Part shown: piece by piece, positions 5,468-31,210 of the stretch
Numbering within the stretch: position 1 is the stretch's first letter
How the letters are laid out: every line of letters starts with the position of its first letter
NCBI GenBank assembly: GCA_963675295.2
Contig: CAXXKJ010000002.1
Location: 4,192,001 to 4,256,000 of the forward strand
Origin: a bacterium
GTDB taxonomy: Bacteria; Electryoneota; Electryoneia; Electryoneales; Electryoneaceae
DNA length: 64,000 nucleotides
Direction: 5' to 3'
Translations under genes and position numbers: made by a program
Notes under the pieces: model-generated
Told to the model about the DNA's origin: nothing
The model's database searches: none
Seen by the model: the letters and a program-made list of their open reading frames with translations, nothing else

Positions 5468-5519
5468 ATGTCATCCTCTAGTTAGCAAGTTTAAACTATC
5501 CTTAAGGGAGGTCCACAGT

Positions 5520-6278: not shown

Positions 6279-6334
6279 CTTTTACACGTCATGCAAGCTT
6301 GCGTACATTTGGCATTAAGATACAAGAGGCATTC

Positions 6335-7360
6335 ATGAGCAAATTTATGCAAGGATTTCTTCAGGACCTTAAACGTGATTTATTGATCGATGATGAGTGG
6401 TATATTGATCACGATGATGGGTTCGAGTGGTGGCCTGGACCCTATTCCCAACGCATAAGGATGATAGGACCTAAAGAATTTAAGGGGATGAAGCTCTATA
6501 AGGTTTCCGCAACGACAAAGATACTTTCAATCAAGAAAAAGTTGTTTGGAAAAAATAGAACTGAACAAGCACTGCTTTTACTTAATCGTTATCCGTTATT
6601 AAATTCGTATGTTTACGATAAAAAACAATCGGTAGTTTCTATATGCTCTTCGTGCTATTTCCCTGAGGCAAGCAAAGTTGGATATCTGTACTGGACGTCT
6701 ATTTCTGCTGCATTTCAAGTTGCACTTGGGGCAATTGGCCTTGAACTTTTGCCGGAACTGTGTGGTGGCCATGTCTTCACAAGCAACCATCCTGCCAGGA
6801 TGGTTCGAACGGACCTTGATGATCTCACAAATATTATCGCAAGCTTGGAACATAAAGTTCATGAGATGTTTTCATCAAGAATAGCAATAGAAATTGATAA
6901 GGTTGGTAAATTTTTAAATGATAATACTGATTTTCTGACAAACTATGAAGAGGATCAACTAACTACCGAGTTACCATTTATTTCTGAAGAACCAGCTGTC
7001 ATGAAATATCTTAATTTGACTGATGGCTCACCATATTCAGAGACCGTCCTACTAAGAATACTCACTGTGGATCAACACCCTAAGCTTAACGAAGGCTTTT
7101 TAGTTCAGATTTCCCTTCCAATTCGTCTTTCAGAAAAATGCATCACAGAACTGAACAGAATAGAAACCGAGCGATTTTACGGCACGCATGTATTCGGTGC
7201 TTGGACTAATGACCATACACTAGGACCTACCCATTCTATTTTTCTGCCATTTGTGGTGTACAAGGATAACACACTTTTAAACACTGTGTTGTCCATGATA
7301 CTGCGTTCGCAAAATGTTAGAGAATTTACGGTATTTCCTGATCGCCTAAAATTTTGCTGA
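6335..7360 (+). CDS. Hypothetical protein, possibly tandem YbjN/T3SS-chaperone-like domains
   Basis: Long ORF, GAGG RBS before MSKF; two LN-containing helix-strand segments (LLNRYP..., ELNRIE...GAW); fold call is pattern inference. Confidence 0.65.
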   Translation: MSKFMQGFLQDLKRDLLIDDEWYIDHDDGFEWWPGPYSQRIRMIGPKEFKGMKLYKVSATTKILSIKKKLFGKNRTEQALLLLNRYPLLNSYVYDKKQSVVSICSSCYFPEASKVGYLYWTSISAAFQVALGAIGLELLPELCGGHVFTSNHPARMVRTDLDDLTNIIASLEHKVHEMFSSRIAIEIDKVGKFLNDNTDFLTNYEEDQLTTELPFISEEPAVMKYLNLTDGSPYSETVLLRILTVDQHPKLNEGFLVQISLPIRLSEKCITELNRIETERFYGTHVFGAWTNDHTLGPTHSIFLPFVVYKDNTLLNTVLSMILRSQNVREFTVFPDRLKFC

Positions 7361-7445
7361 AGTGTGAGTTGAATTTTGGTATTTGCCGACGCTTGAATAT
7401 CTAAAACGCGGATAGGATCGTTGCTTACAACTTCCTATCGATAGA

Positions 7446-7629
7446 TCAACCGGTATCGCGTCGATTCTGCCACAGCTCTTCCAGCAGCGCCTCCACCTGT
7501 TTCTCTTGAAATGCTGTTGATCCTGGCGTGTAGGATGATGCATGGGCACCGGGTAGGTCTTCAGCATACGCAGGTTCGATTCGTGGTTCTTCACTGAAGC
7601 AACGAGTCGAGATCGTTTTGATTAGACAT
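7446..7629 (-). pseudogene. Disrupted paralog of the 95-aa ORF at 13813..14100
   Basis: Frame 7595->7446 reads SEEPRIEPAYAEDLPGAHASSYTPGSTAFQEKQVEALLEELWQNRRDTG; nearest ATG (7629) is one base out of frame. Confidence 0.6.
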
Positions 7630-7655
7630 GGTCCCTGCCACCAGATTTCTTTTGT

Positions 7656-8510
7656 CTACTTCTGCGATTCCCACTCCTTGATATACCTCGTCACAACGGG
7701 AAAACCGGATTGCTGTGCCAACTCAGCAGCAGTGAGTCCTTCGTCATCAAGGATGTCTGTCTTTGCACCGTGTTGCAGTAAGAGTTCACAACATTCAAGG
7801 AAACCAAGCTTTGCCGCGTAATGCAGTGGTGTCCATGTTGTGTAATCAGCCTTGTTCGAATCAGCTCGCCAGCTAAGCAGGAATCGCACCCTTGCAATAT
7901 CCAGATCGTAAACTGCTTTTGTCAGCGCTGTCATACCATGCGAGTCAAATTCATGTATAATTTGACGATGAGTAGTTTGTATCACTCCTCGTTTTACTGC
8001 TAAATCATAGATATTTTCATTGTTTTTTCCGACACCCTCCAAGGCAAGGGCTCCATGTTCGAATAACGAATCGAAGACCCCAAAACGCTCAAAATCACCT
8101 ACACCAAGACTTTCCCAACCCTGCGCTAATTCAATGTAGATTGGAGGCACTCCCCAGGCGTCAAATCCGTCTATATCTACACCAGCTTCCTTCAGAATAC
8201 GGATGCAACCGAAGGCGTCCAGATACACTGCCAGATGGATCAGATTGCCGCTGATTATCCCTGGATTGATCCGATTTGTGTCCTGCTTCCAGAAAGGCAA
8301 GATCTTGTGCAAATAATAGTAATGTGCTGTATCTGGGTCAGCAAACTTCTTGGGATCAAAACTTTCGAAGGCCGCCTGAATTATGAAGTCATCGTAGCCA
8401 TCTATCCTGTAGTCAGCGGCGTCTGGTTCACCTAGCAGTAGAAGACGAAGACGTTCCGTGTCGTCTTGAGCAATAGCGATGATAACTTCCTTGAACCAAG
8501 CTTCTTCCAT
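7656..8510 (-). CDS. Ankyrin repeat protein
   Basis: GMTALTKAV, WTPLHYAAKLGFLECCELLLQHGA, GLTAAELA ankyrin motifs. Confidence 0.9.
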   Translation of the reverse strand: MEEAWFKEVIIAIAQDDTERLRLLLLGEPDAADYRIDGYDDFIIQAAFESFDPKKFADPDTAHYYYLHKILPFWKQDTNRINPGIISGNLIHLAVYLDAFGCIRILKEAGVDIDGFDAWGVPPIYIELAQGWESLGVGDFERFGVFDSLFEHGALALEGVGKNNENIYDLAVKRGVIQTTHRQIIHEFDSHGMTALTKAVYDLDIARVRFLLSWRADSNKADYTTWTPLHYAAKLGFLECCELLLQHGAKTDILDDEGLTAAELAQQSGFPVVTRYIKEWESQK

Positions 8511-8538
8511 AGATTCTGCCTTTCCTGAGTACTCAGTT

Positions 8539-8970
8539 TTAATTCCGATCCCTGAGTTCAGCGCGAACCTGCATAAGTATTTGACCTAAGTGATTTTTTC
8601 CGCGACCAGTTCGAAGATCGACACCCCAGTACGTATCGCCCCAACGGTTGCCTTCCTGGATGTGTTCGTTCCCAGTGGCAAGCAGTTGCTGAGCCATTAT
8701 TGTGTGCTGCTGAAATTTAGCACGCACGCCTTCGAGCATCACGTTCCGTTTCATGTGATCCCAGTTCTTCTGCAACTTTACCCGCTGACCTTCGCGCTTT
8801 GCCTGTTCAGGTGATGCAAGCTTGCGGATTTTTTCAGCTTCACCCTGATCAGCACACTTGCTTGCCTGAAAGAAGTGTTCGACGGTAGGATATCGCTTCC
8901 CATCCACATCGATGGGGGATTCGAGGAAGTTGTCCAGAAACTCGTAGTCTTCTGAAAATCGCTTGATCAT
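8539..8970 (-). CDS. NADAR (YbiA-like) family protein
   Basis: FLDNF, YPTVEHFFQASK, KFQQH, LLATG, DTYWG, GKNHLGQILMQVR motifs. Confidence 0.92.
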   Translation of the reverse strand: MIKRFSEDYEFLDNFLESPIDVDGKRYPTVEHFFQASKCADQGEAEKIRKLASPEQAKREGQRVKLQKNWDHMKRNVMLEGVRAKFQQHTIMAQQLLATGNEHIQEGNRWGDTYWGVDLRTGRGKNHLGQILMQVRAELRDRN

Positions 8971-9115
8971 ATAGTCTCCAGACTGTGCCTCTTCAATGCC
9001 CTTAAATTCAGATCTGTCAACAGCGGCTATCAACCGCTAGTTTTAACACCAACGTCAGTTAGTTGCCGTGCAGTGTACCTAGGATTTCTACTCACCATAA
9101 CTCGAAACTGAACTC

Positions 9116-9143
9116 AAAAGGGAATCTCGGAAGATTCCCTTTT
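9116..9143. terminator. Bidirectional intrinsic terminator
   Basis: AAAAGGGAATCT-CGGA-AGATTCCCTTTT perfect hairpin. Confidence 0.8.
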
Positions 9144-9238
9144 CTGGCGCGGATGTAATTAATCAGATTCCATTCAGTAAGGTGGCATCATGTCGCGGGA
9201 AGTGATCCATTGCGCCAGGCACCCCCACCGAATTCGTG

Positions 9239-10558
9239 TCACTTCACATAGACGATCTTTTGCATCTGCCTACCACTACCGTTCAATGCGGCTTGAATGA
9301 AGTAAACGCCACTTGCCAGGTTGCTCGGTGACCAGCTAAGTCGATGTTCGCCAGCGGTGAACATATCGCGTGCGAGCGTTTCAACAAGCCGGCCAGTCAC
9401 ATCGTAAACAGCGATTGAAAGCTGACCGGATGCAGGCAAGACAACACTGACACCAACCGTGCTGTTGAACGGATTGGGGTATGCTTGCGACATGGTGAAC
9501 GTTTCCGGCTGAACGGGTTCTGTCAACTCACCAGAATCAGACAAATCGGCTTCAAAGTCCCAACCACGATCATGTACCGCCAATTCGTTGTTCCTGCCAA
9601 CCTTGTTGAACTGGAACGAATCTTCAGCAATCACGGTGTTGGGCAGTGTTCCGAGCATAGTATGGAACTGGTACTCACCACCAGGCGCGAAATTCGGCAC
9701 AAACTGGATACCCTGGAACTGAACCTGGTATTCAGCAGGTAGATTCAGGTTCTGGAACGCAACCAGCGGACCGTAGCTGTTTCCATTTGGCAGAGTAACA
9801 CTCGCCCAGGCAGTCGTAACAAGGGGAGTCGCACCGTTCTGGATCATTCCGACAAAATTCAGCGCGCCACCGCGTGCAGGAATGGTGGTGTTGCCTACTG
9901 GATCAACTGTGATCGTCGGGTAGTAGGTAGTGACCACGAAATTGTCGAAGTGTGCCCCATTTTCGCTCTCATAGTACGGACCTGCACCAACCCACAGATA
10001 CAAGTCATCCAAGGTTGAGAAGTTGTCGAAACCGTAAATCACCCGTTCATTCGGACCGCCAACGTCCCACGTGATCTCCCAATCTCCATAGTTACGTTCC
10101 ATGCGCACCACATGTTCACGGAAACCGAAATCGGGGATCGGAACCTGTTCCTGGTGGTCCAACTCCCAGCGCGTGTAGAGTATATCCAAGTCTTCTTGCT
10201 GCAGGTAGAACATGTTCGACCAGTCGTACGCGCCACCTGCCCACGGCATTCCTTCTGACATACCCATGTACACATTGTTGAACTGTGTCATGGTGTCGCG
10301 AGGATAGACGTCAAATTCGATCGTCCACACTTCCGGCATCGTTCCCAATGGTACACCAAAGATTCCAGTGTCATTCCAATAGCCCCAGACTTCAAGTGCG
10401 TAATCACCTTCATGCATCGTTACTTCGCCGAAATCATTGACTAATACCCACGGTTCAAGCGTGCCATCCTCAAAATCATCCTCAAAAATCACGACATCTG
10501 CAACAGATGTTCCAGCCAGCATGAAAATGGCTACGATCCAGCTAAGTGCTTTCTTCAT
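9239..10558 (-). CDS. Secreted protein (lectin/LamG-like N-domain, conserved pre-CTD module, T9SS-type CTD)
   Basis: MKKALSW signal peptide; IFEDDFEDG; PARGG...LPNG...FAPGGEY module; YPNPFN...KIVYVK. Confidence 0.8.
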   Translation of the reverse strand: MKKALSWIVAIFMLAGTSVADVVIFEDDFEDGTLEPWVLVNDFGEVTMHEGDYALEVWGYWNDTGIFGVPLGTMPEVWTIEFDVYPRDTMTQFNNVYMGMSEGMPWAGGAYDWSNMFYLQQEDLDILYTRWELDHQEQVPIPDFGFREHVVRMERNYGDWEITWDVGGPNERVIYGFDNFSTLDDLYLWVGAGPYYESENGAHFDNFVVTTYYPTITVDPVGNTTIPARGGALNFVGMIQNGATPLVTTAWASVTLPNGNSYGPLVAFQNLNLPAEYQVQFQGIQFVPNFAPGGEYQFHTMLGTLPNTVIAEDSFQFNKVGRNNELAVHDRGWDFEADLSDSGELTEPVQPETFTMSQAYPNPFNSTVGVSVVLPASGQLSIAVYDVTGRLVETLARDMFTAGEHRLSWSPSNLASGVYFIQAALNGSGRQMQKIVYVK

Positions 10559-10789
10559 CTTTCTTCCCCTCGTTCTGTTTCGAGTACCGATCCCGCATCG
10601 GTTGCTGAAAGAAGGAGTGGAAATCAAAAGGGGTGAACTAATCCAAAAATTGGAAATGTTACGTCGGACTTGAGTAGAGGAAAACAAAGATCGAATTTAG
10701 GTCAGTATTTTTAGTGCTGGAAGTAGTTCTGAACCGCAAAAACTGCTGGTAGTTGATCCAATCGAAAAGCACTCATCGAATGGGATCAT

Positions 10790-11485
10790 CTAGTTGCTAT
10801 CCGTTGACTCAGACGTGTTATCCAGCGGTCGATTCTTTACCGCCCAAAGGTAGAGATCCCTGAGTTTTGCCAGGCCTACTTTGTTGCGGATTGCTTCGGT
10901 GCGTTTGCGGATTGCCCACTCAGAGAGGTGAATCATGTCGGCAATTTCTGCGACGCTCTTGCCATCCTGCAGCAGTCGCAACACCTCAAGTTCGCCTGCA
11001 CTTAATCCATATGGAACTGCTGATTCGTCTGAATCGATGTCTGCTTTCGACTTGCTTGAGGTCTCATCGCCAGCTGGTGCAGGCAAATTGCTCGGCCATA
11101 CATCCTTGCCTGAATATGCATCGTGGATTGCCTTGACAATTTCCTGATTCGACGCGTGTTTTGTCAAAAAGGCTCTGGTCATTTCAAATGCTTTACGCGG
11201 GACATCAATATCCTGCACTGCAGAAATCACGATTATCCGGACTGCTGGCTTCAGTTCCTGCATTCGCCTGATCGTACGCCACTCACGCATACCGTAAAGA
11301 TCAAGATCGAATAACACGACGTCGACCTGTTCTTTTGTGAAAACAGCCAGGGCCTCGTCACGTGTCTGACATGCGGCCACCAACCGAAGTTCGTGTTCGC
11401 GACGAACAAGATTTCGCATTCCTTCCAGCGCGAGTGCCTGGTCTTCAACTGTAAGAACATGGATAATCGAGGACGACATGGTCAA
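10790..11485 (-). CDS. NarL/LuxR-family response regulator
   Basis: VEDQ, VVLFD receiver; LSAGELEVLRLLQDGKSVAEIADMIHLS HTH. Confidence 0.92.
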   Translation of the reverse strand: MTMSSSIIHVLTVEDQALALEGMRNLVRREHELRLVAACQTRDEALAVFTKEQVDVVLFDLDLYGMREWRTIRRMQELKPAVRIIVISAVQDIDVPRKAFEMTRAFLTKHASNQEIVKAIHDAYSGKDVWPSNLPAPAGDETSSKSKADIDSDESAVPYGLSAGELEVLRLLQDGKSVAEIADMIHLSEWAIRKRTEAIRNKVGLAKLRDLYLWAVKNRPLDNTSESTDSN

Positions 11486-13692
11486 CTCCCCTCAGATTTC
11501 ACTGTATCAAGTCTACTGGGAATCAACATCCAGACTCCGGTCAGCTCGTCAAATCGACGTTCAACAGGCAACCGCAGCTCAACTGTGGTTCCAGCTGAAT
11601 CGTGTGATCGAACCTCGCACGTTCCACCATGAGCCAACATGCGCGTTTCCATCAGCACCAATCCGAGGGACTCAGATTGATGTTTGTCCAGCTCGCGAAT
11701 CCCGATTCCATTGTCTTCGATTTGAATACGGACAGGAGAAGCAGAGGTATAACTACGTACAATGACGCTAGATGCTTTAGAGTGTCGATGAACATTGATC
11801 AGTGCATCCTGGATGCAAAGAAACAAATCCAGCTTCACATCAGAGCCAAAATCTACTTTGTCCTCTTCAATCTCACAGGAACATGCAAATGAATGAGAGT
11901 ATTGTTCAACGACCGAACGCAGCATATCCGCATATTCGAATTGGACCAGGGAAGGTAAAAGCGAACGACTACTTGTTCTTACTTCGCGTTCTGAATCAAA
12001 TAGCAATTTGATCATACGTAGTGATTTGTGAAACAACTTATCATCAACTTCTTTGGCCAGCTCTTCCATTTCCCTACCACAATAGAGAAGAACAGCACAA
12101 ACATTCGAATGAAGGAAGCTTTGTGTATCTGCTCTGATGCTGCTATTTTCACGTGTACTGGCTTCACTAATCTGTTTCAATTTCTGCTGATATAACTTAT
12201 CCTGTTTTTGTTTTTCTATCCGTAGTTTTGCGTGCTTATACCAGATATAAAGCAACACAACCAACAGTGGAACAATCACACCTACCAGGAGATTGAGCCA
12301 ATGACGGTGAAACCACCAACCATACCAAGGTACATGAACCAATTCATACAAATTGAATCTGCCATCTCGATCAATCAGAATTGCATGTTTTCCGGCGAGT
12401 ATTACTTCGGTAGAACGTTTCGCATGATTGCTTTGTATGCGGCCTTCAATTACACCAAGTGGCTGAAATTGGGTATCTAGCAGCCACGAACGAGTCTCAT
12501 CGACGACCAGGTAAGCTGGCCCATTTTGCTCCCGTGATCCAGCAATTTCAATCCGTGAGTAGTGAACTCCATCTGAAACTGCAAAACCAGGCGTAGCATG
12601 AAAGCGTAAATGCCGGAACATACCCACAAATAGATCAGGATCGACGCCCTGATCTACAACCAGTTCGGGAGTAATCCCTGCATGAAAGACCAATCTGGTT
12701 TGGCCAAGTGTGGTGGTAGAGTCAACTGTCGAACCAGTTTCAGGATCCAACAGCCAGAGTGTTGTGACTTTGCTTTCTTGCAATGAAATCCCAGATCGGA
12801 CGACCAGCAACCTGTCCTGCCATGGAACAACCTCTGCTGATCCGCCCCCACCACCAGTGTTCCTATACCATAGCAGGGTTCCATGGTCGTCATAGCAGAA
12901 GACATAAGAGTACTCGTCCGTAAACAGGGCGTTTCCCATTCCATTGCCTGGGGCACTGCTGACACCGACAAATCGATGTTGACCACTTCGTTCAGTCTCA
13001 TGTATGAATCGAACGTTGACTCGAACACCCGTTTGGATATCGAAGAGTACGTGATGCTTGTCGTCCAACCGCATCATTCTCAGTCGCCAGACCTTCAAAG
13101 AACTTGGGTATACCACGCCCACAAACGTACTTGAATCTGCGCTAGCAATTGGTCGCGACACAGTTACTTCGTTGCTAATCCCCTGTAAAGGCCTGTATGG
13201 AACATTCACATCTTGTAGCAATGATGTTGACTGCCCCTTCAGTAGATCGAACATGTAGCATGTCTGAGAAGTATCCGTCTTTTGTGAAAAACAGATCCAT
13301 CGTGTGTTCGTTTGATCGTCTGCGACAAAACTCATATCATAAAATGGCACCTGACGAGGAAAACTGGTTGCACGTTCCAGATTGAACCGGCCCAGATTTG
13401 GCGATCCGGAAGGGGCTTCAATCTGCAGGTAGCGTTCATTACTTAAACCACGATGCCCCAGGTGAGCAACAACCAGGAAAGGATCAGGTAGTGAGTCCGC
13501 AACAAACGGTTCAATTGCTTGTGTGTCGAGGCTGAATGTGCGAATGTGTCGAAACTGATAGGGGTATGCTTTTGGATTCGGTTCAGAATACTCACAACCA
13601 GTAACGAACAGAACGAGACATCCTGCAAACAAAACTAACGCTGCTGTTCCGGGTGAGTGTGTAGGCGATTTCATCGAGTCAATATACCGCAT
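11482..13692 (-). CDS. Membrane sensor histidine kinase (NarX-like HATPase, large beta-propeller-like periplasmic domain)
   Basis: FLHSNV H-box, ALINVHRHS N-box, DNGIG, LGLVLM; TM helix; 4-bp overlap with the RR. Confidence 0.88.
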   Translation of the reverse strand: MRYIDSMKSPTHSPGTAALVLFAGCLVLFVTGCEYSEPNPKAYPYQFRHIRTFSLDTQAIEPFVADSLPDPFLVVAHLGHRGLSNERYLQIEAPSGSPNLGRFNLERATSFPRQVPFYDMSFVADDQTNTRWICFSQKTDTSQTCYMFDLLKGQSTSLLQDVNVPYRPLQGISNEVTVSRPIASADSSTFVGVVYPSSLKVWRLRMMRLDDKHHVLFDIQTGVRVNVRFIHETERSGQHRFVGVSSAPGNGMGNALFTDEYSYVFCYDDHGTLLWYRNTGGGGGSAEVVPWQDRLLVVRSGISLQESKVTTLWLLDPETGSTVDSTTTLGQTRLVFHAGITPELVVDQGVDPDLFVGMFRHLRFHATPGFAVSDGVHYSRIEIAGSREQNGPAYLVVDETRSWLLDTQFQPLGVIEGRIQSNHAKRSTEVILAGKHAILIDRDGRFNLYELVHVPWYGWWFHRHWLNLLVGVIVPLLVVLLYIWYKHAKLRIEKQKQDKLYQQKLKQISEASTRENSSIRADTQSFLHSNVCAVLLYCGREMEELAKEVDDKLFHKSLRMIKLLFDSEREVRTSSRSLLPSLVQFEYADMLRSVVEQYSHSFACSCEIEEDKVDFGSDVKLDLFLCIQDALINVHRHSKASSVIVRSYTSASPVRIQIEDNGIGIRELDKHQSESLGLVLMETRMLAHGGTCEVRSHDSAGTTVELRLPVERRFDELTGVWMLIPSRLDTVKSEGS

Positions 13693-13812
13693 GGCACGGT
13701 GTTTCTCAAGAGTTCTGGCGTCTGAGGAAGTGAGGCAGATGATGAGCTTCTGCTATGCCATAGGTTTTTGATTGACGAATTAGAAGGTCAATTATCAACC
13801 CATTGCTACGGC

Positions 13813-14100
13813 TTATATCCTATACATCCCTTTGCCCTGTCGATTCTGCCACCACTCTTCAAACGCTTGTTCCACAAGCTTTGCCTGATGAACCGCCGAA
13901 TCAGGCGACAATGGTAAACCAGATGTTGTTGAGTCATCGGGGTTGTCCGTTTCAATTCGGGGTTCTTCGCTGGCTGGTTTGAACTTCGAATGCCGTAAAC
14001 CAAGAGCTCGAGCTAGTCTAGACCGTTCTTTTTTTTGTTGTTTTGTGTCGCCCCAATCAAGGGACGTGCTGTCAGTACTTCGTGATTTGTGTAGGTTCAT
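13813..14100 (-). CDS. Small hypothetical protein immediately downstream of the putative origin
   Basis: AGGTGAGGA RBS; C-terminal half conserved in the paralog at 7446-7595. Confidence 0.65.
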   Translation of the reverse strand: MNLHKSRSTDSTSLDWGDTKQQKKERSRLARALGLRHSKFKPASEEPRIETDNPDDSTTSGLPLSPDSAVHQAKLVEQAFEEWWQNRQGKGMYRI

Positions 14101-14222
14101 ATGGATTCCTCACCTGTTTCGTGTTTTTTTGTTTTGATGCGCTGTTATACCGTCCTATCCCGTCAGGGTGCTGTTAGTGCGGGACACGTCTGGGCATGTC
14201 CTTAAGCACGCAGTGCGCCGCA

Positions 14223-14560
14223 GCGAGACAACACAAAAAAACGAGTAGGATGACCAAAACGTGACAGGAATGACCACTTTTCCAGGGTGCTTTGGTCATA
14301 CTTAACTTGTGTTATAATTAGTAAATACACGGCGAATGACCGAAATGACCGGAATTTTTCAGAACCTTTTATAGGGTACGTATTCTATATTGTTAGGTTT
14401 ATCTAACTAGTCGATATACCAGTTTCTAAAAAAAGTGGTCATTTCAGTCATCACGCTCGTAATTAGCTTAATAGACAGGACTTAAGTATGACTAAACACA
14501 TCAAAAAAAGCTGTCATTTTCGGTCATTCTGGTCATCGTGTTTTTTTGTTTTTGTTTCGC
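14223..14560. repeat. Dyad-symmetric iteron array, putative replication origin
   Basis: 12 RTGAC(C/A/T) hexamers mirrored about ~14393.5 around an AT-rich core, abutting the primase-helicase stop. Confidence 0.8.
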
Positions 14561-16628
14561 CGTAGAAGTGTTTCTTCCGCAGGATTTCGAAGCCGTACTT
14601 CTGTTTAGCACTGCGCGTTTCTTGATACGCTACCACGTGACTGTCTTGCAAACGACGGAAGTAATCCTGATGACGTTCAGGACGTAAACGCATTGACTTA
14701 AGCATCTCCCGGAATTCCATTTTCATGATATGGCTACCACCACCATGGGTTGCACCTTCGCCATCGACATAACCCAATACCAAGGCTTCAGCAACCAGAT
14801 CCGTTTCAGCTTCGATGTTTGTTTGTGCTGAATCGTAAAGGTCTTTTTCCAGATCCGTGATTGGGCATGGAATACCGTAGCGCGCTGTCGATGTCTGTCT
14901 TTGGGCTTCCCATTTCTTATGCCGTTTTTTCAGTTCAGTGCGCATGTAGTGACCAAATCGTTCACGAATTTCATCCTTGATGTGCGGATTCAGCTTCTTG
15001 ATCGCCGGCACCTTGTAGATGAAGAAATTGTTGTGATCTGGACTGGTTGGTTTTTCATCAGCAACCAGGAATACCGGCCTTGGTTCGTTGGTCGTCAGGA
15101 TGATGTTGGTGTTGTTACGTACACGGTACTGCGGCATGTATTTTTCGTTAACGGTCAGGAATTCGCTGCCGGTCACCCCTTTGATCTGCACGTACTGGCT
15201 TTTTTTGTTGATGTAGTTTTCTTCCACCATTAATAGTTTGTTCGTATAGAACGGGGTAAAATTTTGCTTGTCGCCATCCCAGTCAGAAGCCAGGTCAGGA
15301 AAAATGCTAGCAACGATTTCAGAAAAGGTTGTTTTACCGGTACCACGTTCACCTGTTAGCACTAAAACTGGTAGCTTTTGGTAGTTTGTGTAGCAGTACA
15401 AGGCAAGCCAGTTCTTGATGAAATCGCTATGCTGGTCAAAAAGACTATCCAACCATCGATCTACAAAAGCGTTATCTTTCTTGTCCACTTCTAGATCAGA
15501 CGGAATTTGTATCTGTAGACGACCAGTGTCGAAGTTCAGATCGTAGTCCACCTGGTTGAATGCTGCGCTGGCACGTCGTTCGACGGTAAATTCAGCGCTA
15601 GGTATGTTTCGTCTGCGGGACAGGAAGGTCTTAACATAGTCGCGGTTTCCTTTGCTGATGTAGTCATCGCGGACTTTCACCACATGGGCGTTGCTGTCCG
15701 TCACCTGCACGCGCATCAGTTTGTCTTCCAACATGAACATGCCGGGCTCGACAGGATCTTCGTAGAAGTAGTGTTGATCACCGACAGATTGGCAGTGGGA
15801 ACAGTTCATCTCGACAAAGCCCTTCTTCGTCAGTTGTACGAAAGCGGATGGGCTTTCCGAATTCAAATCATCACAAAACGGGCAGTAGCACGGCTGCTTG
15901 TGGTCCTTGCAGGTTTCCAGGTAAGGGCGTAAGGTTTCCAGTTTGAAACTGGTTCGCTTGTTGGGCAAGACAACATCCATGTCATGTCCGATGTATCGAT
16001 ACTTACCTGCCGGTTGTGCGTTTCCATTGGACGCCTGAACAGCTTTTTCCCTGGCTACTTTTTCCACTTCATCCAGCGGCACCTGGAACCAGATACCTTC
16101 CGTATTCACCTTTAGAATGAAACGATCCGGATTCGGGTTCACATTGGGATATAGCTTCATGTGGCGAGCAAATACACCAGAATCAAACTGCGGGAAGCGT
16201 TTCTTCGCCCAGCCGTAGACTTTGTCGGCCTCATCTGGATCCGTGAAGTACAGACCATTTTGCGGATCAAATGGCAGGATCACCCGGAAACGGGGCTGAA
16301 CCCCACGATGATCAGGCTTGTCTTCCAGATGGTTTGTTGATGTGTACAGGATGTAGTTGTGGTCCTTGAACTGTGCTTCGGCAGCTTCAATGGAAATCAA
16401 TCCATCGTCCGCATCAAGTGCTAGCCCTACCATTCCCTGGTAGCTTTCCTTACCACAATTCTGATCTGGATCCCACACGTTGGTTGCGTGGGCGTAGCTG
16501 CTGAATAGTGTTTCTAAGGCGGGTCGATCTAGCAGGTTTACTGATTCAAGCTTGAATCTTGTTACATTGTTGCCATCAGATTTTGTTTGTAATTTCTTTT
16601 CCTTATTAATAGAAAGTCTAATTTCCAT
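14514..16628 (-). CDS. Primase-helicase (AEP-type primase, Zn finger, SF3/DUF5906-like helicase)
   Basis: LDADD, YTSTNH, RFRVILP AEP motifs; CPFC...CSHC; GERGTGKT Walker A, LLMVEE Walker B, TTN motif C. Confidence 0.88.
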   Translation of the reverse strand: MEIRLSINKEKKLQTKSDGNNVTRFKLESVNLLDRPALETLFSSYAHATNVWDPDQNCGKESYQGMVGLALDADDGLISIEAAEAQFKDHNYILYTSTNHLEDKPDHRGVQPRFRVILPFDPQNGLYFTDPDEADKVYGWAKKRFPQFDSGVFARHMKLYPNVNPNPDRFILKVNTEGIWFQVPLDEVEKVAREKAVQASNGNAQPAGKYRYIGHDMDVVLPNKRTSFKLETLRPYLETCKDHKQPCYCPFCDDLNSESPSAFVQLTKKGFVEMNCSHCQSVGDQHYFYEDPVEPGMFMLEDKLMRVQVTDSNAHVVKVRDDYISKGNRDYVKTFLSRRRNIPSAEFTVERRASAAFNQVDYDLNFDTGRLQIQIPSDLEVDKKDNAFVDRWLDSLFDQHSDFIKNWLALYCYTNYQKLPVLVLTGERGTGKTTFSEIVASIFPDLASDWDGDKQNFTPFYTNKLLMVEENYINKKSQYVQIKGVTGSEFLTVNEKYMPQYRVRNNTNIILTTNEPRPVFLVADEKPTSPDHNNFFIYKVPAIKKLNPHIKDEIRERFGHYMRTELKKRHKKWEAQRQTSTARYGIPCPITDLEKDLYDSAQTNIEAETDLVAEALVLGYVDGEGATHGGGSHIMKMEFREMLKSMRLRPERHQDYFRRLQDSHVVAYQETRSAKQKYGFEILRKKHFYGETKTKKHDDQNDRK

Positions 16629-16643
16629 ATTTTTTCCTTTGGT

Positions 16644-16820
16644 TTAACCTTTGATATCCCATAGATCATAATATTCATCTTCATATCTTTCGTTTTCTTC
16701 CTGATAGTCTTGCATACATGCTGCATACCAGTCTTCTTCGTTGTCATACATATTTCCTTCAAGCCATTCTGGCTTTTTCTTCTTAACTACTTTTTCATCA
16801 TTCTGCTTTTTCCATTTCAT
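16644..16820 (-). CDS. 58-aa basic/acidic micro-protein (not in ORF track)
   Basis: AAGGA RBS; MKWKKQNDEKVVKKKKPEWLEGNMYDNEEDWYAACMQDYQEENERYEDEYYDLWDIKG; fills the gap between HTH gene and primase. Confidence 0.55.
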   Translation of the reverse strand: MKWKKQNDEKVVKKKKPEWLEGNMYDNEEDWYAACMQDYQEENERYEDEYYDLWDIKG

Positions 16821-17004
16821 AGAAAATCCTTGGTTTGTTATCGTTCAAATAGTAGATACGCTTGATGTGATCAACTTGTCGTCGACTGATACCGTATCTG
16901 TTCTGGATGTAGCGCCGTGATAAATCCATATCCAGGGCACGGCATACATTGCTACAAAGTCTTGTGTCTTCCAGTACTTCCGCTGTCGTGGTATGTAGTC
17001 CCAT
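16798..17004 (-). CDS. Small HTH-like DNA-binding protein
   Basis: LSRRYIQNRYGISRRQVDHIK HTH-like pattern; first gene after a consensus promoter. Confidence 0.6.
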   Translation of the reverse strand: MGLHTTTAEVLEDTRLCSNVCRALDMDLSRRYIQNRYGISRRQVDHIKRIYYLNDNKPRIFYEMEKAE

Positions 17005-17132
17005 AAGTTTTGTCCTTGATTTGTTTCACTTACACATCAGTTTCGATTCAAATTGTCCCGACAAAAACCGCCGTAGCGGTATCTGCCGTAGACTTTCAAT
17101 TCTGGAAAAGATATGTAATATCTGACAATTAT

Positions 17133-17161
17133 ATTATAACATTTTTCGGCATATTTGTCAA
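17133..17161 (-). promoter_or_regulatory. Consensus sigma70 promoter for the replication operon
   Basis: TTGACA (17161-17156), 17-bp spacer, TATAAT (17138-17133) on minus strand. Confidence 0.8.
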
Positions 17162-17500
17162 TAGCCGGTCAGAAATATTTTCTGGGTCTCCTCGGCCATT
17201 CAATCTTTCATTTGTATCCTATACCCCTATTGAAGAGTGCAGGATGCCACTGCCACAACCGTTGTCAAGTTTGGATTTCAGCGAAGACGCAGGGCATAAA
17301 AACCGCGGATTGCACCGTTTGAATTTCAGCAGAAACTCTGAAAAAACTGGATGAGACTTCCAAGACAAGTCCATAAAAAAATTACATTTACTATAATTAT
17401 TATGTTTTATATGAATTTCGAATCCGTTTCTGAAACTACCCTCTATCTAGGGGCGAAGAGTCTCCCTGCCAGCCTCCCAGAGTCGACTGACAGATTACAC

Positions 17501-17549
17501 TTGCGTAGGGGACACTTATGGCGATAGTATTGAGTGTCTTATGTCCCCT
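17501..17549 (+). promoter_or_regulatory. Putative promoter/operator of the XRE gene
   Basis: TTGCGT-18-TAGTAT overlapped by inverted repeats GACACTTA/TGAGTGTC and AGGGGACA/TGTCCCCT. Confidence 0.5.
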
Positions 17550-17565
17550 CAATATCAGGAGTCAC

Positions 17566-18369
17566 ATGACCATGTTCGACAGACCTGAACGAGACCGCTC
17601 GCTTACAGCCAAGTTCTTGAGCACCCTTCGTGATAAATTGGCCTATACCCAGGAAGAGATGGCAGAGCTTTTCGGTGTTTCCAAAAAAACGTATGCAAGA
17701 TGGGAGCGTGGCAACTATGCACCCAAACCTTCGATCTTGTATCCATCCCTTGCAGCACTTCTGCTGACTGGTTCAGCGTCAACTTCGATAAAGAACGTAA
17801 TAAGAGATTTTATTGGAAAAGAATCCTTACCATTTGACATCAGAGCTAGATTGAGGGCTGGCGATTCGAAATCAGGTCCTAATTTGCTTGATAAAAGCAA
17901 AAAACAGTCCATCATTATCATGAAGAAAGGATCTACGCCCCCAGAAAAATATGAAATGAACAGTATTGGAATGTGGGGCTTTGGCCCAATAGATTATGAT
18001 TATATCACGTTTGAACTATTTCAGAATACTTCAAAAGGAGATATACTGTTATTGAAATTTATCATACCATCACAAGGATTACGACATAACAATAACACAC
18101 AGTCACAAGGTCATTCAAAAGCAGTACAGGCTATTTTAAGTCGAGATGCGATTGTAGCCTCACAAACTATTAATTCAATAGTGTATGATAACAATGATAT
18201 CGACAAAAAAGTATATTTTTATTCTTTTCAATTGGAAACAAAGCTCTTGCCGAGCCATATACTATACTATAAAGTAGAGATAGTTAAATTCATAGAATCC
18301 GAAAAGGAAGAAGAACCTTTTGACAAAATTGTAATTTGGAGCGCTGAAGGAAACATTGAAATACAGTAG
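17566..18369 (+). CDS. XRE-family HTH regulator with unknown C-terminal domain
   Basis: LRDKLAYTQEEMAELFGVSKKTYARWERG; AGGAG RBS before ATG 17566. Confidence 0.85.
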   Translation: MTMFDRPERDRSLTAKFLSTLRDKLAYTQEEMAELFGVSKKTYARWERGNYAPKPSILYPSLAALLLTGSASTSIKNVIRDFIGKESLPFDIRARLRAGDSKSGPNLLDKSKKQSIIIMKKGSTPPEKYEMNSIGMWGFGPIDYDYITFELFQNTSKGDILLLKFIIPSQGLRHNNNTQSQGHSKAVQAILSRDAIVASQTINSIVYDNNDIDKKVYFYSFQLETKLLPSHILYYKVEIVKFIESEKEEEPFDKIVIWSAEGNIEIQ

Positions 18370-18452
18370 ATAAAAGACCCACACCATTTCGCCCATGGTG
18401 TGGGTCACAAGCTAGAACGGAGCTTACGCTCCGAACACAGAAAGGAAATATC

Positions 18453-19034
18453 ATGAAAGAAAGTAAGAAACGCAACTTTGGAGGATCAGATCTCCTTGGT
18501 AGGCAGAGCGAATTGCCAAACCCTAACCACAGCCTGGTGACTGTGATACCGGCCGAGATAGAATCGCTCCTTGCAGAGCAGGGATTTGTGACTCTATCAC
18601 AGCTATACGATCGACTTCCGCGCAACCGTGAAAACGGACGGAGACTCATTGGGTTCAACACGCTGTGTGAATATGCCCGGATTGGTTTGATGAAAACACG
18701 GGTGCTAAACCGCAAGAACATGCGCGTGTTGGACCGGGACATGGTTGAGTGGTTTTTCAGGGTACTACCAACCGGACAGCGGGAGTTTCAACTGATCCAC
18801 GAGAGCTTTCGGGATAACCACTGGTATATAGGTGAGTCGGATGAGTTCAACAAGCCGGCGGGTAGATCCCGGGCTGAAAACCTAAGACTGCACAGAGAAA
18901 GGGAAAAACTCGCGACCAAGTATTGTAACCTCGTTAACGATATCCTGCCTGACTTGGAAGAAAATCGGCTCAGCGAAGACGATGTCCTGGAAAGCCTTAA
19001 GCCACTTGAATCCGAAGTTCGCCAGCTGGTATAA
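18453..19034 (+). CDS. Hypothetical protein with MerR-like HTH (possible recombination directionality factor)
   Basis: FNTLCEYARIGLMK...RVLDRDMVEWF resembles the MerR winged HTH; directly upstream of the integrase. Confidence 0.55.
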   Translation: MKESKKRNFGGSDLLGRQSELPNPNHSLVTVIPAEIESLLAEQGFVTLSQLYDRLPRNRENGRRLIGFNTLCEYARIGLMKTRVLNRKNMRVLDRDMVEWFFRVLPTGQREFQLIHESFRDNHWYIGESDEFNKPAGRSRAENLRLHREREKLATKYCNLVNDILPDLEENRLSEDDVLESLKPLESEVRQLV

Positions 19035-19063
19035 GAACATGTAAGCGAACCGAGGAGACGATT

Positions 19064-20119
19064 ATGGCTTGGCTAGAGCGGAAGGAAACGAAATCCGGAC
19101 GCAGAACTTGGTACGTCCGATTCTGGAAACCGGACGGAAGCAAGGGCTCAAAAGCCCTGGGTGTAGGATTGACGAAGCGCGAAGCCCAGCAATTAATGCT
19201 GGATTTTGAACGGAAACAGGCACTTGTTGCGGCAGGTCTGGTTACTCCAGACACCATGGACTGCTCATTGAACGAATTTGTGAAAATGCACCATACGTTT
19301 TCGAAAGCCAACAAGGCAGAGAGCACGGTACTTCGCGACGACAATACCCTTCGAAATCTGATGACCTTCGCGGGTAGTAAGATTCAGGTAAAGGAGATAA
19401 ATCGGTGGATAATCGACGATTACGTCGCACACAGGCTGGAGAGAGTCAAGCCTGGAACGGTGAATCTTGAGATTCGACATCTGAAAGCTGCATTCAACCA
19501 GGCCGTTCGGTGGGATTTGATCGGGGACAATCCGTTTAAAGGTGTTAAGCAGATCAGAATTCCACAATCCGACGTTCCGAAATTCCTTGATCAAGGACAG
19601 ATCGAGCAACTCTTAGCTGTAATGGTGTCAGATCCGTTACTGCCCTTAGTAAGATTCTATCTATTTACGGGCGCCAGACTTCGCGAAGGTGTTTATCTAC
19701 GGGGAGACGATCTTGATTTTGACCGCAAGATTATTCTGTTCCGTGGTCGTTGGACGAAAAGCAAACGCAATAGAATCCTACCTTTCGGCCAACTCCCCGA
19801 GTTAGAATCATTGCTGCTTGGGCAAAGTCCCAAACAGGATTTCCCAGTATTCCACTCGGTAAAGGGATCTGACACCATGTGGAACATTCATTGGGTGGGG
19901 CACAGGATCAGCGAAATGTTTAACAGGATCGGCATCCCTTGGGCAACTACGCATACCCTCAGGCACACCTTCGCTTCGCATTTGGTAATGCAGGGCGTAG
20001 AGCTTTTCACTGTTTCTAGGCTGCTGGGGCACTCTTCCGTCACGATTACCGAGCGGCATTACGCACACCTAGCACCTGGTCATGCAGAACGGGCAATCGC
20101 GAAGCTCCCTTATCGCTAG
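19064..20119 (+). CDS. int: Tyrosine recombinase/integrase
   Basis: TGARLRE (R), TKSK (K), HTLRH, LGHSS, HYAH; SAM-like core; ends 75 bp from att. Confidence 0.95.
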   Translation: MAWLERKETKSGRRTWYVRFWKPDGSKGSKALGVGLTKREAQQLMLDFERKQALVAAGLVTPDTMDCSLNEFVKMHHTFSKANKAESTVLRDDNTLRNLMTFAGSKIQVKEINRWIIDDYVAHRLERVKPGTVNLEIRHLKAAFNQAVRWDLIGDNPFKGVKQIRIPQSDVPKFLDQGQIEQLLAVMVSDPLLPLVRFYLFTGARLREGVYLRGDDLDFDRKIILFRGRWTKSKRNRILPFGQLPELESLLLGQSPKQDFPVFHSVKGSDTMWNIHWVGHRISEMFNRIGIPWATTHTLRHTFASHLVMQGVELFTVSRLLGHSSVTITERHYAHLAPGHAERAIAKLPYR

Positions 20120-20193
20120 CGCGGCAATGCCCACCTATTGCCCACCAGCACAGAAAGGGGGTTAACGCTATTAAGCGTAAACCCCTGTTTTTA

Positions 20194-20236
20194 CTAGTGC
20201 GCCATCAGGGACTTGAACCCCGAACCTGCGGATTAA
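20194..20236. repeat. att site: 43-bp copy of the tRNA-Lys 3' half
   Basis: CTAGTGCGCCATCAGGGACTTGAACCCCGAACCTGCGGATTAA identical to 31134-31176. Confidence 0.95.
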
Positions 20237-20465
20237 TAGACTTATGCTCTGCAAAAGCCGATTTATCTTTATATGTACTTATATATTAGATAAATAATAT
20301 AGGCGTATCAGGCAGTTTCTTCTTGACAAGATGAGATCCATAATTCTGCAGGAGCTCTCTTCTCCTCCCCCGATTGCACCCTGAGTTTCGCTCGCCTTAC
20401 TCGACCACACATTTTGTCACAGGTGGCATTAACAATCTCTGTGATTTCGAGGACAAGCACAAAAC

Positions 20466-21011
20466 ATGGCCTTAGATCTGGTACTGCGATTACGTGATGG
20501 TGATGAAGAAGCGTTCCGCGAACTATTTCTGTCGTATGTACGGGTGCTCATCAGCTTTGTCTACGGAATCGTTCACGACCTACCCATTGCAGAAAACATC
20601 GTCCAGGATGTCTTTGTCGAACTCTGGAACCGGCGGCGATCGCTGAATCCCAATTCGAGCATCCGCCCCTACCTCTACACAATCGCGAAGAATAAAGCTT
20701 TCAAGCATCTGAGGCACAAAGATGTTGAACGCCGACATGCAGATGAAACAAGTCAAAGTGACCTGTTCGAACCCTCCCCAGAGCATTCTGTCATCTCCGA
20801 AGAAAGAATCGCTGCGATTCACGCTGCCATCGATGCTCTACCTGAGAAATGCAAGCTTGTCTTCAAGATGAACCGTTTCCAGGATCTAAGCTATGCTGAG
20901 ATCGCTGAGGTGCTGGATATTTCAAAGAAGACTGTAGAAGCCCACATGAGCCGTGCCCTGCGAGAACTGCGCGACAAGCTCGGGCATTTGTTTGTCCTGC
21001 TATTCCTCTAA
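20466..21011 (+). CDS. ECF sigma-70 factor (Bacteroidota-expansion type)
   Basis: AENIVQDVFVELW region 2; LPEKCKLVF...SYAEIAEVLDISKKTVEAHM region 4. Confidence 0.95.
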   Translation: MALDLVLRLRDGDEEAFRELFLSYVRVLISFVYGIVHDLPIAENIVQDVFVELWNRRRSLNPNSSIRPYLYTIAKNKAFKHLRHKDVERRHADETSQSDLFEPSPEHSVISEERIAAIHAAIDALPEKCKLVFKMNRFQDLSYAEIAEVLDISKKTVEAHMSRALRELRDKLGHLFVLLFL

Positions 21012-21145
21012 TCGTCCAGAAGCGTCAAACCACCCACCAGTAATCCTGTCTGCCATGTCGAGTCTCCCTGCTCTCCTGGAGACTAAGGGTATTCTCTGCC
21101 TAAGGGGTACCACCAATAGAACCCGGGATTTGCAGGAGTTGAGTC

Positions 21146-22159
21146 ATGAACCATGAGATCGATCTTGAATTGCTGGCGAAGTACTTGTCCGGCGAATGTT
21201 CGGACCAGGAAGTGAATGATGTTGAAACGTGGATGGCCCTTGATGAGGAAAACCGACAGTCAGTCGAACAGTTGCGTCAAATCTGGGAGACACCTCCGCC
21301 GGATATCGCCGCATCAAGTGATATCGAACGGATGTGGGAAGAGGTCGCCGACCAGACTAGCCGCAAATCTGACAGGACTGCCAGCCGATCCACCAAGGTC
21401 ATTCCACTGTTCAGCAGTAAGGTGCTTCGCTATGCGGCCGCCATTGCGATACTGGTCATTCTGAGCGTGACGATGATTCAAACGATCCCAACACTGCTGA
21501 CTACTGGTGAAACTCAACTGGCTGAGTTGACCATTCCGAACGCAAACCAGGATAGCATCACTTTAGCTGATGGTACCGTGGTCACCTTGGACGCGGGTTC
21601 AACCCTTCGCTATCCGAAATCGTTCGTTGGCCGAACGCGCGAGGTTGAGTTGAACGGCGAAGCCTATTTCGATGTTGCACCTGACCAAGACAAACCGTTC
21701 ACAATAAAAACTGCGCTGGGGCGTGTTCAGGTTCTGGGTACAGAGTTTTCCGTGCGTGGTTGGGACAAGAACGAACCACTGCGGGTTGTTGTTGCTGAGG
21801 GCAAGGTTTCACTCGCTTCAAAAACTGACCTGTCTCAACCGGTGATTCTCACGGCTGGACTGGAAAGCGCCGTATGGAGTGGAATGATACCTACTGAACC
21901 TCGAGAAGCTGACCTCAGCACCGAATTCAGTTGGATGCAGGGTGTCCGGATTTACAGCGGGCATACGGTCCAAACGGTCATCTTCGACATGCAGCGCTGG
22001 TATGACCTCAATATCGATTTTGTTGACAGTGATCTGCTTTCAGAGCGAGTCTCACTGCGAATCGAACGCGACAGTCAAACGGAAGCGCTTGATTTGATGG
22101 CTGTCCTGACAGGTACCAGTTGGATTCAAACACAAGAAGGTGTGCAATTCACCAGGTAG
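21146..22159 (+). CDS. FecR-family anti-sigma factor
   Basis: LADGTVVTLDAGS, REVELNGEAYFDV, VQVLGTEF; one TM helix. Confidence 0.93.
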   Translation: MNHEIDLELLAKYLSGECSDQEVNDVETWMALDEENRQSVEQLRQIWETPPPDIAASSDIERMWEEVADQTSRKSDRTASRSTKVIPLFSSKVLRYAAAIAILVILSVTMIQTIPTLLTTGETQLAELTIPNANQDSITLADGTVVTLDAGSTLRYPKSFVGRTREVELNGEAYFDVAPDQDKPFTIKTALGRVQVLGTEFSVRGWDKNEPLRVVVAEGKVSLASKTDLSQPVILTAGLESAVWSGMIPTEPREADLSTEFSWMQGVRIYSGHTVQTVIFDMQRWYDLNIDFVDSDLLSERVSLRIERDSQTEALDLMAVLTGTSWIQTQEGVQFTR

Positions 22160-22194
22160 TAGATCGCTACCTGTGAATCCAGGGGAGTTGTGTC

Positions 22195-27427: not shown

Positions 27428-27467
27428 GACCCATTCTCACGACTGGTCGAATTGAGGAGATCCTGAG

Positions 27468-31127: not shown

Positions 31128-31137
31128 CTATTTCTAG

Positions 31138-31210
31138 TGCGCCATCAGGGACTTGAACCCCGAACCTGCGGATTAAGAGTCCGTTGCTCTGCCAATTGAG
31201 CTAATGGCGC
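31138..31210 (-). tRNA. tRNA-Lys(CTT)
   Basis: GCGCCATTAGCTCAATTGGCAGAGCAACGGACTCTTAATCCGCAGGTTCGGGGTTCAAGTCCCTGATGGCGCA cloverleaf; CCA not encoded. Confidence 0.95.

Follow-up and report, generated by a model that had tools for sequence, protein, structure and literature searches.

The gene for a PriRep-like primase-helicase at 14514..16628 on the minus strand of the window (the whole 64,000-nucleotide, or 64-kb, stretch of DNA analysed here) runs at its 3′ end into a dense array of short repeats, and the question raised by this locus is what the array does. A sequence-only reading had proposed a SaPI-like iteron origin with mirror-symmetric arms around an AT-rich core, fused to the stop codon of the primase gene (rep). 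Our scan located all of its RTGAC hexamers (12/12) at the starts and in the orientations it gave: forward at 14250, 14261, 14270, 14336, 14345 and 14488, and reverse at 14294, 14437, 14446, 14512, 14522 and 14531. In the order of the rep strand there are three forward, one reverse and two forward copies, then the core, then two reverse, one forward and three reverse copies, with centre-to-centre spacings of 9, 10, 24, 42, 9, 92, 9, 42, 24, 9 and 11 bp. The predicted replication origin, with its 12 RTGAC(C/A/T) iterons around axis 14393.5, occupies 14250..14536 (287 bp, no strand assigned), or about 14223-14560 with its A-tract flanks. According to the hexamer scan, the rep-distal arm is composed of an outer triad (14250, 14261 and 14270; 14250..14275, plus strand), an inverted iteron 18 bp from the triad (14294..14299, minus strand) and, 36 bp past that iteron, an inner pair (14336..14350, plus strand). 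The rep-proximal arm contains the inner pair (14437 and 14446; 14437..14451, minus strand), the inverted iteron (14488..14493, plus strand) and the outer triad (14512, 14522 and 14531; 14512..14536, minus strand), which overlaps the last rep codons and has the stop codon in the 14512 iteron; the array thus covers the end of rep and then extends 265 bp beyond the stop. The tandem period is 9-11 bp, and the gap from triad to inverted iteron is 18 bp on both arms. Between the inner iterons lies a core of 86 bp (14351..14436, no strand assigned, about 71% AT), predicted from its composition, and from the SaPI literature as regards melting, to be the unwinding element.

The mirror symmetry proposed about 14393-14394 was borne out, since the axes of the six iteron pairs fall at 14393 (one pair), 14393.5 (four) and 14394 (one). 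At axis 14393.5, 80 of 170 positions are complementary without gaps, the highest value among the approximately 127,000 axes of the 64 kb (mean 43.2, sd 6.3), and the runner-up reaches 74 near 40735. The longer matches between the arms that had been quoted were also found, with 11/12 and 14/15 complementary positions. Twelve RTGAC/GTCAY motifs are present in 14223-14560, compared with a mean of 1.31 and a maximum of 5 in 2000 dinucleotide shuffles, and they form six mirror pairs, compared with a mean of 0.16 and a maximum of 2 in 1000 shuffles; random placement of 6+6 motifs gave six mirror pairs in 0/20,000 cases. When a mirror test was applied 3′ of the stop codons of 39 window ORFs, rep had six pairs and each of the other 38 had three or fewer. 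An A/T-tract motif is present on both flanks of the array (14223-14242 and 14536-14560) and recurs twice beyond it (14027-14052 and 14119-14135), 14119-14135 being an exact 17-nt copy of 14536-14552; such tracts are possible bending sites or sites for a second protein.

The protein encoded by rep (Rep, 704 aa) has an AEP-type N-terminus, a zinc-finger-like Cys cluster, an SF3 helicase and a predicted winged-helix C-terminus. It matched DUF5906 in Pfam (E 1e-12) and primase families in PHROG. In the N-terminal AEP-type domain, D72, D74, H100, R113 and D149 are invariant in an alignment of 22 sequences, and we infer from the sequence that D72/D74, H100, R113 and D149 would be equivalent to AEP motifs I-III and the conserved Arg of PrimPol-PV1. 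ESM Atlas look-alikes of residues 1-290 were RepB_primase clusters (score 0.92-0.93), which we treat as a lead. The Cys cluster (C247/C249/C252 and C276/H278/C279) is C-terminal to the primase domain, and the Walker A motif of the SF3 helicase (DUF5906; G426-T434) is intact and invariant. By profile (hmmsearch), the closest solved relative of Rep was the C-terminal region of the NrS-1 polymerase (E 2e-24), the profile alignment covering only residues 382-526, that is, the helicase; profile comparison of the N-terminal domains of Rep and NrS-1 gave no alignment. The AlphaFold model of Rep (mean pLDDT 83.5, pTM 0.52) aligned with NrS-1 (6K9C; Z 20.4, rmsd 10.0, 345 residues aligned, reaching the end of 6K9C), with PriRep5 of SaPI5 (7OLA; Z 16.7, rmsd 7.0, 307 residues aligned) and also with D5-type SF3 helicases. 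At the C-terminus of the full-length model, two helices (636-645 and 650-662) are followed by two strands (666-672 and 677-682) at a pLDDT of ~83-85, and this helix-helix-strand-strand order in residues 636-682 suggests a winged helix. Folded alone and with no alignment, the C-terminal domain gave a pLDDT of 40, and a six-sequence profile of it retrieved nothing significant from the PDB. The relatives P0046, P0047, P0054, P0057, P0058 and P0061 (813-915 aa) match Rep only from the zinc finger/helicase onward, so in some lineages this helicase has different, longer N-terminal domains fused to it. At E values up to 1e-10, 827 relatives were counted. The domain order of Rep and its tRNA-integrated context are those described for PrimQH-type proteins within the PrimPol-PV1 supergroup, which combine AEP, Zn-binding, P-loop ATPase and winged-helix domains and belong to tRNA-integrated elements; in that description, origin recognition by the winged helix is only speculated (PMC5862659).

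How does this arrangement compare with known origins? SaPI origins are described as consisting of 6-12 iterons, each a penta- or hexanucleotide, immediately downstream of rep and split equally between the two sides of an AT-rich region, to which a self-loading helicase binds with its winged-helix C-terminus (PMC9371898). The array has these sequence-level features of SaPI/PICI origins: it is located 3′ of rep, has 12 iterons with six on each side and an AT-rich core, and accompanies an SF3 helicase, SF3 and MCM-like helicases being the self-loading kinds expected with such origins. The most detailed comparison is with SaPI5, whose origin of ~300 bp is reported to have L2-L4 in tandem at a 9-bp period and an inverted L5 15-17 bp away, four C-terminal winged-helix domains of PriRep5 occupying the three tandem iterons and the inverted one in the cryo-EM structure (bioRxiv 10.64898/2026.10.17.759575). 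Likewise, the origin in the window is directly 3′ of a fused primase-SF3 helicase of the same helicase fold (Z 16.7 with 7OLA), and measures ~300 bp; both origins have 11-12 short iterons in opposed sets around the AT-rich core, with three tandem iterons (~9-bp period) and an inverted one 15-18 bp off. From SaPI5, the gap before the inverted iteron (15-17 bp in SaPI/PICI origins) would be expected to be AT-rich on each side; the corresponding 18 bp of the window contain 13/18 A or T on the rep-proximal and 10/18 on the rep-distal arm, so that one of the two is clearly AT-rich. The two systems differ in iteron sequence (RTGAC(C/A) in the window, TGCAAC(C) in SaPI5), in the nearly exact 6+6 mirror symmetry plus inner pair of the window, in Rep itself, which has 13% identity with PriRep5 in the structural alignment, and in the host, which is an uncultured Gram-negative-type bacterium here, with no terS or interference gene recognised.

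The sequence-only reading had suggested looking for the same layout behind homologous primases. One scan of GTDB genomes yielded seven Rep homolog loci, L001-L007, with Rep identities of 77% (L001), 64% (L002), 59% (L003), 48% (L004), 47% (L005) and 34% (L006 and L007, both from Marinimicrobia). An unbiased mirror test, applied blindly behind each rep stop with 60 shuffles per locus, detected a mirror array at five of the seven loci: L001-L005 carry a TGAC array at the 3′ end of rep with 6, 5, 6, 4 and 6 mirror pairs, respectively, a result reached by 0/60 shuffles each. L006 and L007 did not pass (38/60 and 23/60 shuffles were as good); there, a degenerate GTG[GT]CAGG repeat in a three-three-core-three arrangement was visible only with a hand-chosen pattern. 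The spacings are conserved together with the motif. In L003 they are 10, 10, 24, 42, 8, 92, 8, 41, 23, 9 and 10, and L001 has the same series with a core of 90 when two extra TGAC matches are skipped. L002 matches with a degenerate third iteron and L005 with a core of 83; L004, which has no rep-distal inverted iteron (hence four pairs), matches on the rep-proximal arm only, with a core of 103. Where the spacers of L001, L002 and L005 contain further TGAC matches, we passed over these and added up the distances. The L001 origin is likewise trailed by similar A/T tracts, and sequencing-adapter-like stretches were seen at the contig end of L002 (6340-6540), which make that sequence unreliable beyond ~6340, well past the array.

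The homologous loci also allowed us to judge the proposed fusion of the origin to the stop codon. In the window, the primase TGA (14516-14514) does lie within the hexamer 14512-14517. Compared with the third iteron, however, the stop is inside it only in the window and L003, after it in L001 and L002, and ahead of the whole array in L004 and L005, and the outer triad overlaps the last rep codons in 4/6 TGAC-type loci. With the stop inside an iteron at only 2/6 loci, we rejected this position as a functional feature and regard the fusion as incidental. The reading frame at this end of the gene deserves attention as well: the tail of Rep in the window is KKHDDQNDRK, and the same DNA read one base over gives KNTMTRMTENDSFF, which agrees with the tail of the 93%-identical homolog P0001. 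Between the window and P0001 there is thus a one-base shift within an A-run near 14540-14546, which is either real or an assembly error; the shifted tail region of the Rep model has a pLDDT below 50. Another difference between close relatives concerns the base after RTGAC, which is C in 8/12 iterons of the window; in L001-L005 it is A in 47/55 motif matches and C in 1/55. In the window, the predicted wing at about residues 666-682 has the sequence QETRSAKQKYGF, and its counterpart in L001 is QETRNASKRLGF; from these sequences we infer a change in iteron specificity between the two. Since this fifth-base shift occurs despite 77% identity between the two Rep proteins, a few wing residues are candidates for determining specificity.

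Does the array act as double-stranded protein-binding DNA or as a folded strand? The core claimed to be AT-rich is so (71% AT in the 84 nt measured, compared with 52% in the rep coding sequence), and over the window and the homolog loci the cores have 64-87% AT, compared with 50-60% in the upstream coding DNA. The spacers were claimed to have diverged, and this holds for L002 and L003, where identity between the arms is at chance, but not fully for the window, whose spacers retain part of their mirror identity: 48/112 mirror positions are complementary, compared with an expected fraction of 0.27 (binomial p 2e-4). As computed by script, the mirror identity of the spacers is 0.43 in the window and 0.46, 0.25, 0.25, 0.37 and 0.34 in L001-L005, with 0.25-0.28 expected. 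The length of the long spacer (within the 42-bp segment) is nevertheless 35-37 bp on both arms in all 5/5 loci measured, L004 being excluded because its anchor iteron is absent, and identity of this spacer between loci is 0.20-0.53, reaching 0.72 for the window and L001 only.

These data bear on the possibility that the origin works as a single-strand hairpin or cruciform, as in plasmid pRN1, whose AEP-SF3-winged-helix protein depends on a stem-loop of 100 nt located 3′ of rep (PMC4234260). Rep shares this domain logic with the pRN1 protein ORF904, and its presumed origin is likewise 3′ of the gene (PMC4234260). The strand of the window folds far better than its shuffles (-58.8 kcal/mol, z -6.2), the homolog array regions reach z values of -1.6 to -4.5, and the spacer symmetry of the window and L001 (0.43 and 0.46) would suit a stem. 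But many loops interrupt the predicted stem, the ensemble frequency of the MFE structure is 0, tandem direct copies at a 9-10-bp period would be superfluous for a hairpin, and L002 and L003 keep the iteron positions with spacer complementarity at chance (0.25). Moreover, the stem-loop of pRN1 is described as being without iterons (PMC4234260); what the family of the window retains are the positions of short motifs and not the complementarity of the arms. A pRN1-type stem-loop was rejected on this presence of iterons and on the chance-level complementarity in L002 and L003, and we give a hairpin origin in general only a small chance of being right. The earlier preference for protein-binding geometry over a hairpin is thus upheld, because positions are conserved among the homolog loci while pairing is not. 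The leftover spacer symmetry of the window and of L001 may stem from homogenisation of the arms or from longer contact sites.

The neighbourhood of the array is that of a small integrative element. Directly upstream of rep is a 58-aa acidic ORF (16644..16820, minus strand), which L002 matches weakly at the corresponding position (63% over 19 aa, E 1.7e-4), followed by a 68-aa small HTH-like ORF (16798..17004, minus strand), whose homologs in L003 and L004 (47-51%, E 8e-15 and 6e-12) are likewise situated upstream of rep. The 68-aa ORF has a weak HTH_28 match in Pfam (E 0.015) and is a candidate excision or regulatory factor. Divergent from this operon are an XRE/HTH_3 repressor-like gene (17518..18369, plus strand; Pfam/PHROG), a 193-aa ORF of no assigned family (18453..19034, plus strand), whose weak MerR/HTH_17-like look-alikes with scores below 0.9 are a lead only, and a tyrosine integrase (19064..20119, plus strand; PF00589 E 2e-19, phrog_1 E 1e-59). 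L003 and L005 encode HTH_17 proteins, and a relationship of the 193-aa ORF to these was considered and dropped, none being detectable. Downstream of the origin, a 95-aa ORF (13813..14100, minus strand) has a homolog downstream of the L003 origin (35% over 69 aa, E 1.4e-9). Adjoining the end of the integrase gene, 5.7 kb from the array, is an att core (20194..20236, minus strand), a 43-bp exact copy by sequence identity of the 3′ half (31134-31176) of tRNA-Lys(CTT) (31137..31210, minus strand; Rfam/tRNA scan), which is the probable integration target. The GC content is 0.45-0.46 over 4900-20200, compared with 0.58 past the tRNA. No second, far att site was found within the window, so the element may be a remnant.

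Several observations were made around the borders of this element. Just past its last conserved ORF, 49 nt (13754-13802) are 76% identical, in inverted orientation, to 4839-4887, a region at the start of a transposase pair (3439-4862); they may be the remnant of an IS end marking where the element was cut. The 11 kb between tRNA-Lys and its 3′ duplicate (20241-31133) encode an ECF sigma factor, FecR, two TonB-dependent receptors and a two-component pair, and contain no integrase; it probably represents another island, inserted in tandem at that tRNA. A similar hairpin and GTGGGC repeats follow both att copies. The many proteins with C-terminal sorting domains encoded in the window suggest that the host is an FCB-type bacterium, and the bin named for P0002 belongs to Electryoneota in GTDB.

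The gene order is that of PICIs, with int and the XRE gene on one strand and the small HTH gene, rep and the origin divergent from them. For Gram-negative PICIs, the same origin layout has been reported, and their rep-ori was reported to drive plasmid replication (PMC6092414). The window shares with Gram-negative PICIs (EcCICFT073) and PICMIs an integrase linked to tRNA or tmRNA, a small HTH gene, a primase-rep gene, an iteron origin and the absence of capsid genes. At the same time, the divergence of the integrase-repressor pair from rep is a layout described for Gram-positive PICIs, and no AlpA family match was found in the window. In L002-L005, int and rep are co-oriented, as in Gram-negative PICIs, and each stretch opens with a tRNA or tmRNA, after which comes a tyrosine integrase. 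A tRNA-Gln 3′ duplication ~12.4 kb apart bounds L005, and no bounding tRNA 3′ duplication was found in the stretches of L002-L004 examined. In L001, the gene directly upstream of rep encodes an IS256-family transposase, and the stretch retrieved contains no integrase. Among the 45 + 7 window ORFs, no capsid, terminase or lysis genes were matched in PHROG, and no phage-interference or terS gene was recognised among the ORFs of the element, of which those of 95, 58 and 193 aa have no family. An integrative mobilizable or conjugative element was also considered and rejected, Pfam scans having revealed no relaxase or T4SS family among the window ORFs, although an element with only an oriT would be possible. 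The element resembles a PICI or PICMI, and we withhold assignment as a PICI, which would take helper-phage-dependent induction and packaging as well as two att sites bounding about 6-15 kb, of which the far one is missing here. Downstream of the origin, cargo differs among the relatives: L004 (13696-15382) and L005 (14110-16255) have a DUF932 protein and a PD-(D/E)XK nuclease, split over two ORFs in L004 and joined by a Rad52/Erf-like annealing protein in L005, and in L001 the cargo consists of a restriction-modification pair of type III and a phrog_18693 protein of 1259 aa.

The element encodes several DNA-binding proteins, and the array might instead serve the XRE repressor, the small HTH protein, the integrase or the terminase of a helper phage as an operator or as a site of packaging or recombination. 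However, it accompanies rep and not the repressor or integrase: L001 has the array without an integrase in the fetched stretch, and the repressor and the 193-aa ORF of the window had no tblastn match in L001-L007. Furthermore, a promoter and terminator scan found no such site in the array, and att is 5.7 kb off; an Rfam scan of the whole window detected two tRNAs only and no known RNA family at the array. We assign a role for another protein the smallest chance of all readings weighed here.

The array very probably serves a small integrative element, targeted to a tRNA, as its replication origin, which is of the type found in SaPIs and PICIs. The SaPI-like reading is supported because the array and its spacings are conserved behind homologous primase-helicases (5/7 GTDB loci) and because the SF3-helicase fold is common to Rep, PriRep5 of SaPI5 and NrS-1; the integrative context and the published SaPI/PICI origins agree with it. 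The design of the origin is already known from SaPIs and PICIs and the window is a further instance, so the feature alone will not surprise a specialist. By analogy with SaPI5 and SaPIbov1, a PriRep hexamer would bind the double-stranded iterons through its C-terminal winged-helix domains after excision, one hexamer on each arm. Four C-terminal domains would be taken up by the outer triad together with the inverted iteron, as happens on L2-L5 in SaPI5, and the inner pair would engage the remaining domains or position them beside the core. The ring would then load itself, the AT-rich core would melt and the helicases would separate in the 3′ to 5′ direction, with the AEP domain priming and host proteins or the enzyme itself performing extension. 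The mirror symmetry would represent two oppositely oriented hexamers rather than a folded strand. Natural origins with fixed distances and free spacer sequence fit the four-domain unit of PriRep5 and predict the placement of two hexamers.

We then asked whether phages with related primase-helicases carry such arrays. Neither Rep (tblastn) nor the array (blastn) had a match among phages and plasmids, and phage relatives were reached with the distant homolog P0033 as the query, which gave 33 phage records, 11 of which were fetched across different hosts. The mirror test behind the primase stop was passed by 5/11 phage loci: NrS-1, Stenotrophomonas S1, Halomonas H4907 and Pseudomonas KT1 (0/60 shuffles each) and Moraxella Mcat7 (1/60). 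Mcat4 was borderline (2/60), its repeats being plain by eye (TGTGCAGGG), and KPP25, phiA008, UF_RH7, C22 and RpY1 (4/60) did not pass; an annotated DNA polymerase gene is present in the fetched stretch of three of these five. In the first 340 bp after the primase stop, the iteron words are TGTGCGG in S1 (L009), TCAGACA in H4907 (L010), TGGT[TG]CA in Mcat7 (L011) and TGGTT in KT1 (L013), the array of Mcat4 being at L018. Within the same 340 bp, no similar arrays were seen in KPP25, phiA008, C22 and RpY1, and UF_RH7 has a few TAAGTGCC-like copies.

The array of NrS-1, a deep-sea phage, is of particular use since its enzyme is well studied. A mirror array of GTTACAC repeats lies directly behind the stop of the primase-polymerase gene (AB746912.1, L014, 17055-17380, corresponding to 3955-4280 of L008), and all 11 copies of GTTACAC in the 37,159-bp genome record are at 17062-17377, within 330 bp after the stop at 17051. 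NrS-1 resembles the window in this position of a mirror iteron array and in being the nearest solved relative of the helicase and C-terminal region of Rep. It differs in the N-terminal primase region, composed of a PrimPol plus a helix bundle in the NrS-1 polymerase family, which does not align, Rep having the zinc-finger-like cluster after the primase domain, in its iteron (GTTACAC) and in being a full temperate phage. The array overlaps the annotated hypothetical ORF NRS1_29, which may be spurious. Our literature search, to which Zhu et al. 2017 was external, found no account of this array as iterons; that paper reportedly may mention a repeat region in NrS-1, and the array may already be in print.

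The NrS-1 primase is reported to initiate at the 8-nt site 5'-TTTGGTTA-3' (PMC8718748), two copies of which were described by Chen et al. 2020 as perhaps the origin (PMC7102993); we found one copy in the NrS-1 record, compared with two in that report. This only exact site (17198) falls among the GTTACAC iterons. It could accordingly be asked whether the repeats in the window are mainly recognition sites for the primase on the unwound single strand, and not loading sites on double-stranded DNA: two one-mismatch copies of the 8-nt site fall on iterons of the window (14291 and 14251), and preferred priming starts of SCCmec are reported to map to an iteron (PMC7581432). Yet there are 28 one-mismatch matches across the whole window, 5/7 homolog arrays lack such a site, and the single ones of L004 and L006 are seemingly off the iterons. 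Priming sites would not need the fixed 24- and 42-bp distances, and Rep does not align with the N-terminal domain of NrS-1 (profile match of residues 382-526 only). A mainly priming function consequently has a very small chance, and a role of the repeats in priming can coexist with that of an iteron origin.

Across lineages the iteron words are RTGACC in the window, RTGACA in L001-L005, GTG[GT]CAGG in L006-L007, GTTACAC in NrS-1, TGTGCGG in S1 and TCAGACA in H4907. It is quite possible, though we would lean slightly against it, that an origin with three tandem iterons and an inverted one, followed by an inner pair, is the family-wide loading platform of the DUF5906/NrS-1-type primase-helicases, common to capsid-less islands of uncultured bacteria and temperate phages with an iteron word that varies by lineage, and that the NrS-1 array is a helicase-loading origin with a priming site. 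Pairs of iteron word and Rep would then constitute a natural code linking the wing residues of the winged helix to iteron sequence. The role of the NrS-1 C-terminal domain in origin recognition, which Qiao et al. 2022 describe as not yet addressed (PMC9371898), would be explained as well, and the GTTACAC array is a ready substrate for the NrS-1 enzyme.

Two further groups of repeats were observed in the window. At 40524-40942, between an enoyl-CoA hydratase gene and queG and with no rep gene near, eight forward and four reverse CACG(G/A)AA-type repeats with a ~9-bp period enclose a 245-bp core of 78% AT. This region has the second-best symmetry axis of the window and fewer than four pairs in the strict mirror test, and by its sequence it is a putative second, orphan origin-like array. 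Finally, a short palindromic repeat, REP-like or terminator-like, occurs in two intergenic positions, 39471-39523 and 56740-56792, its copies being 74-75% alike.
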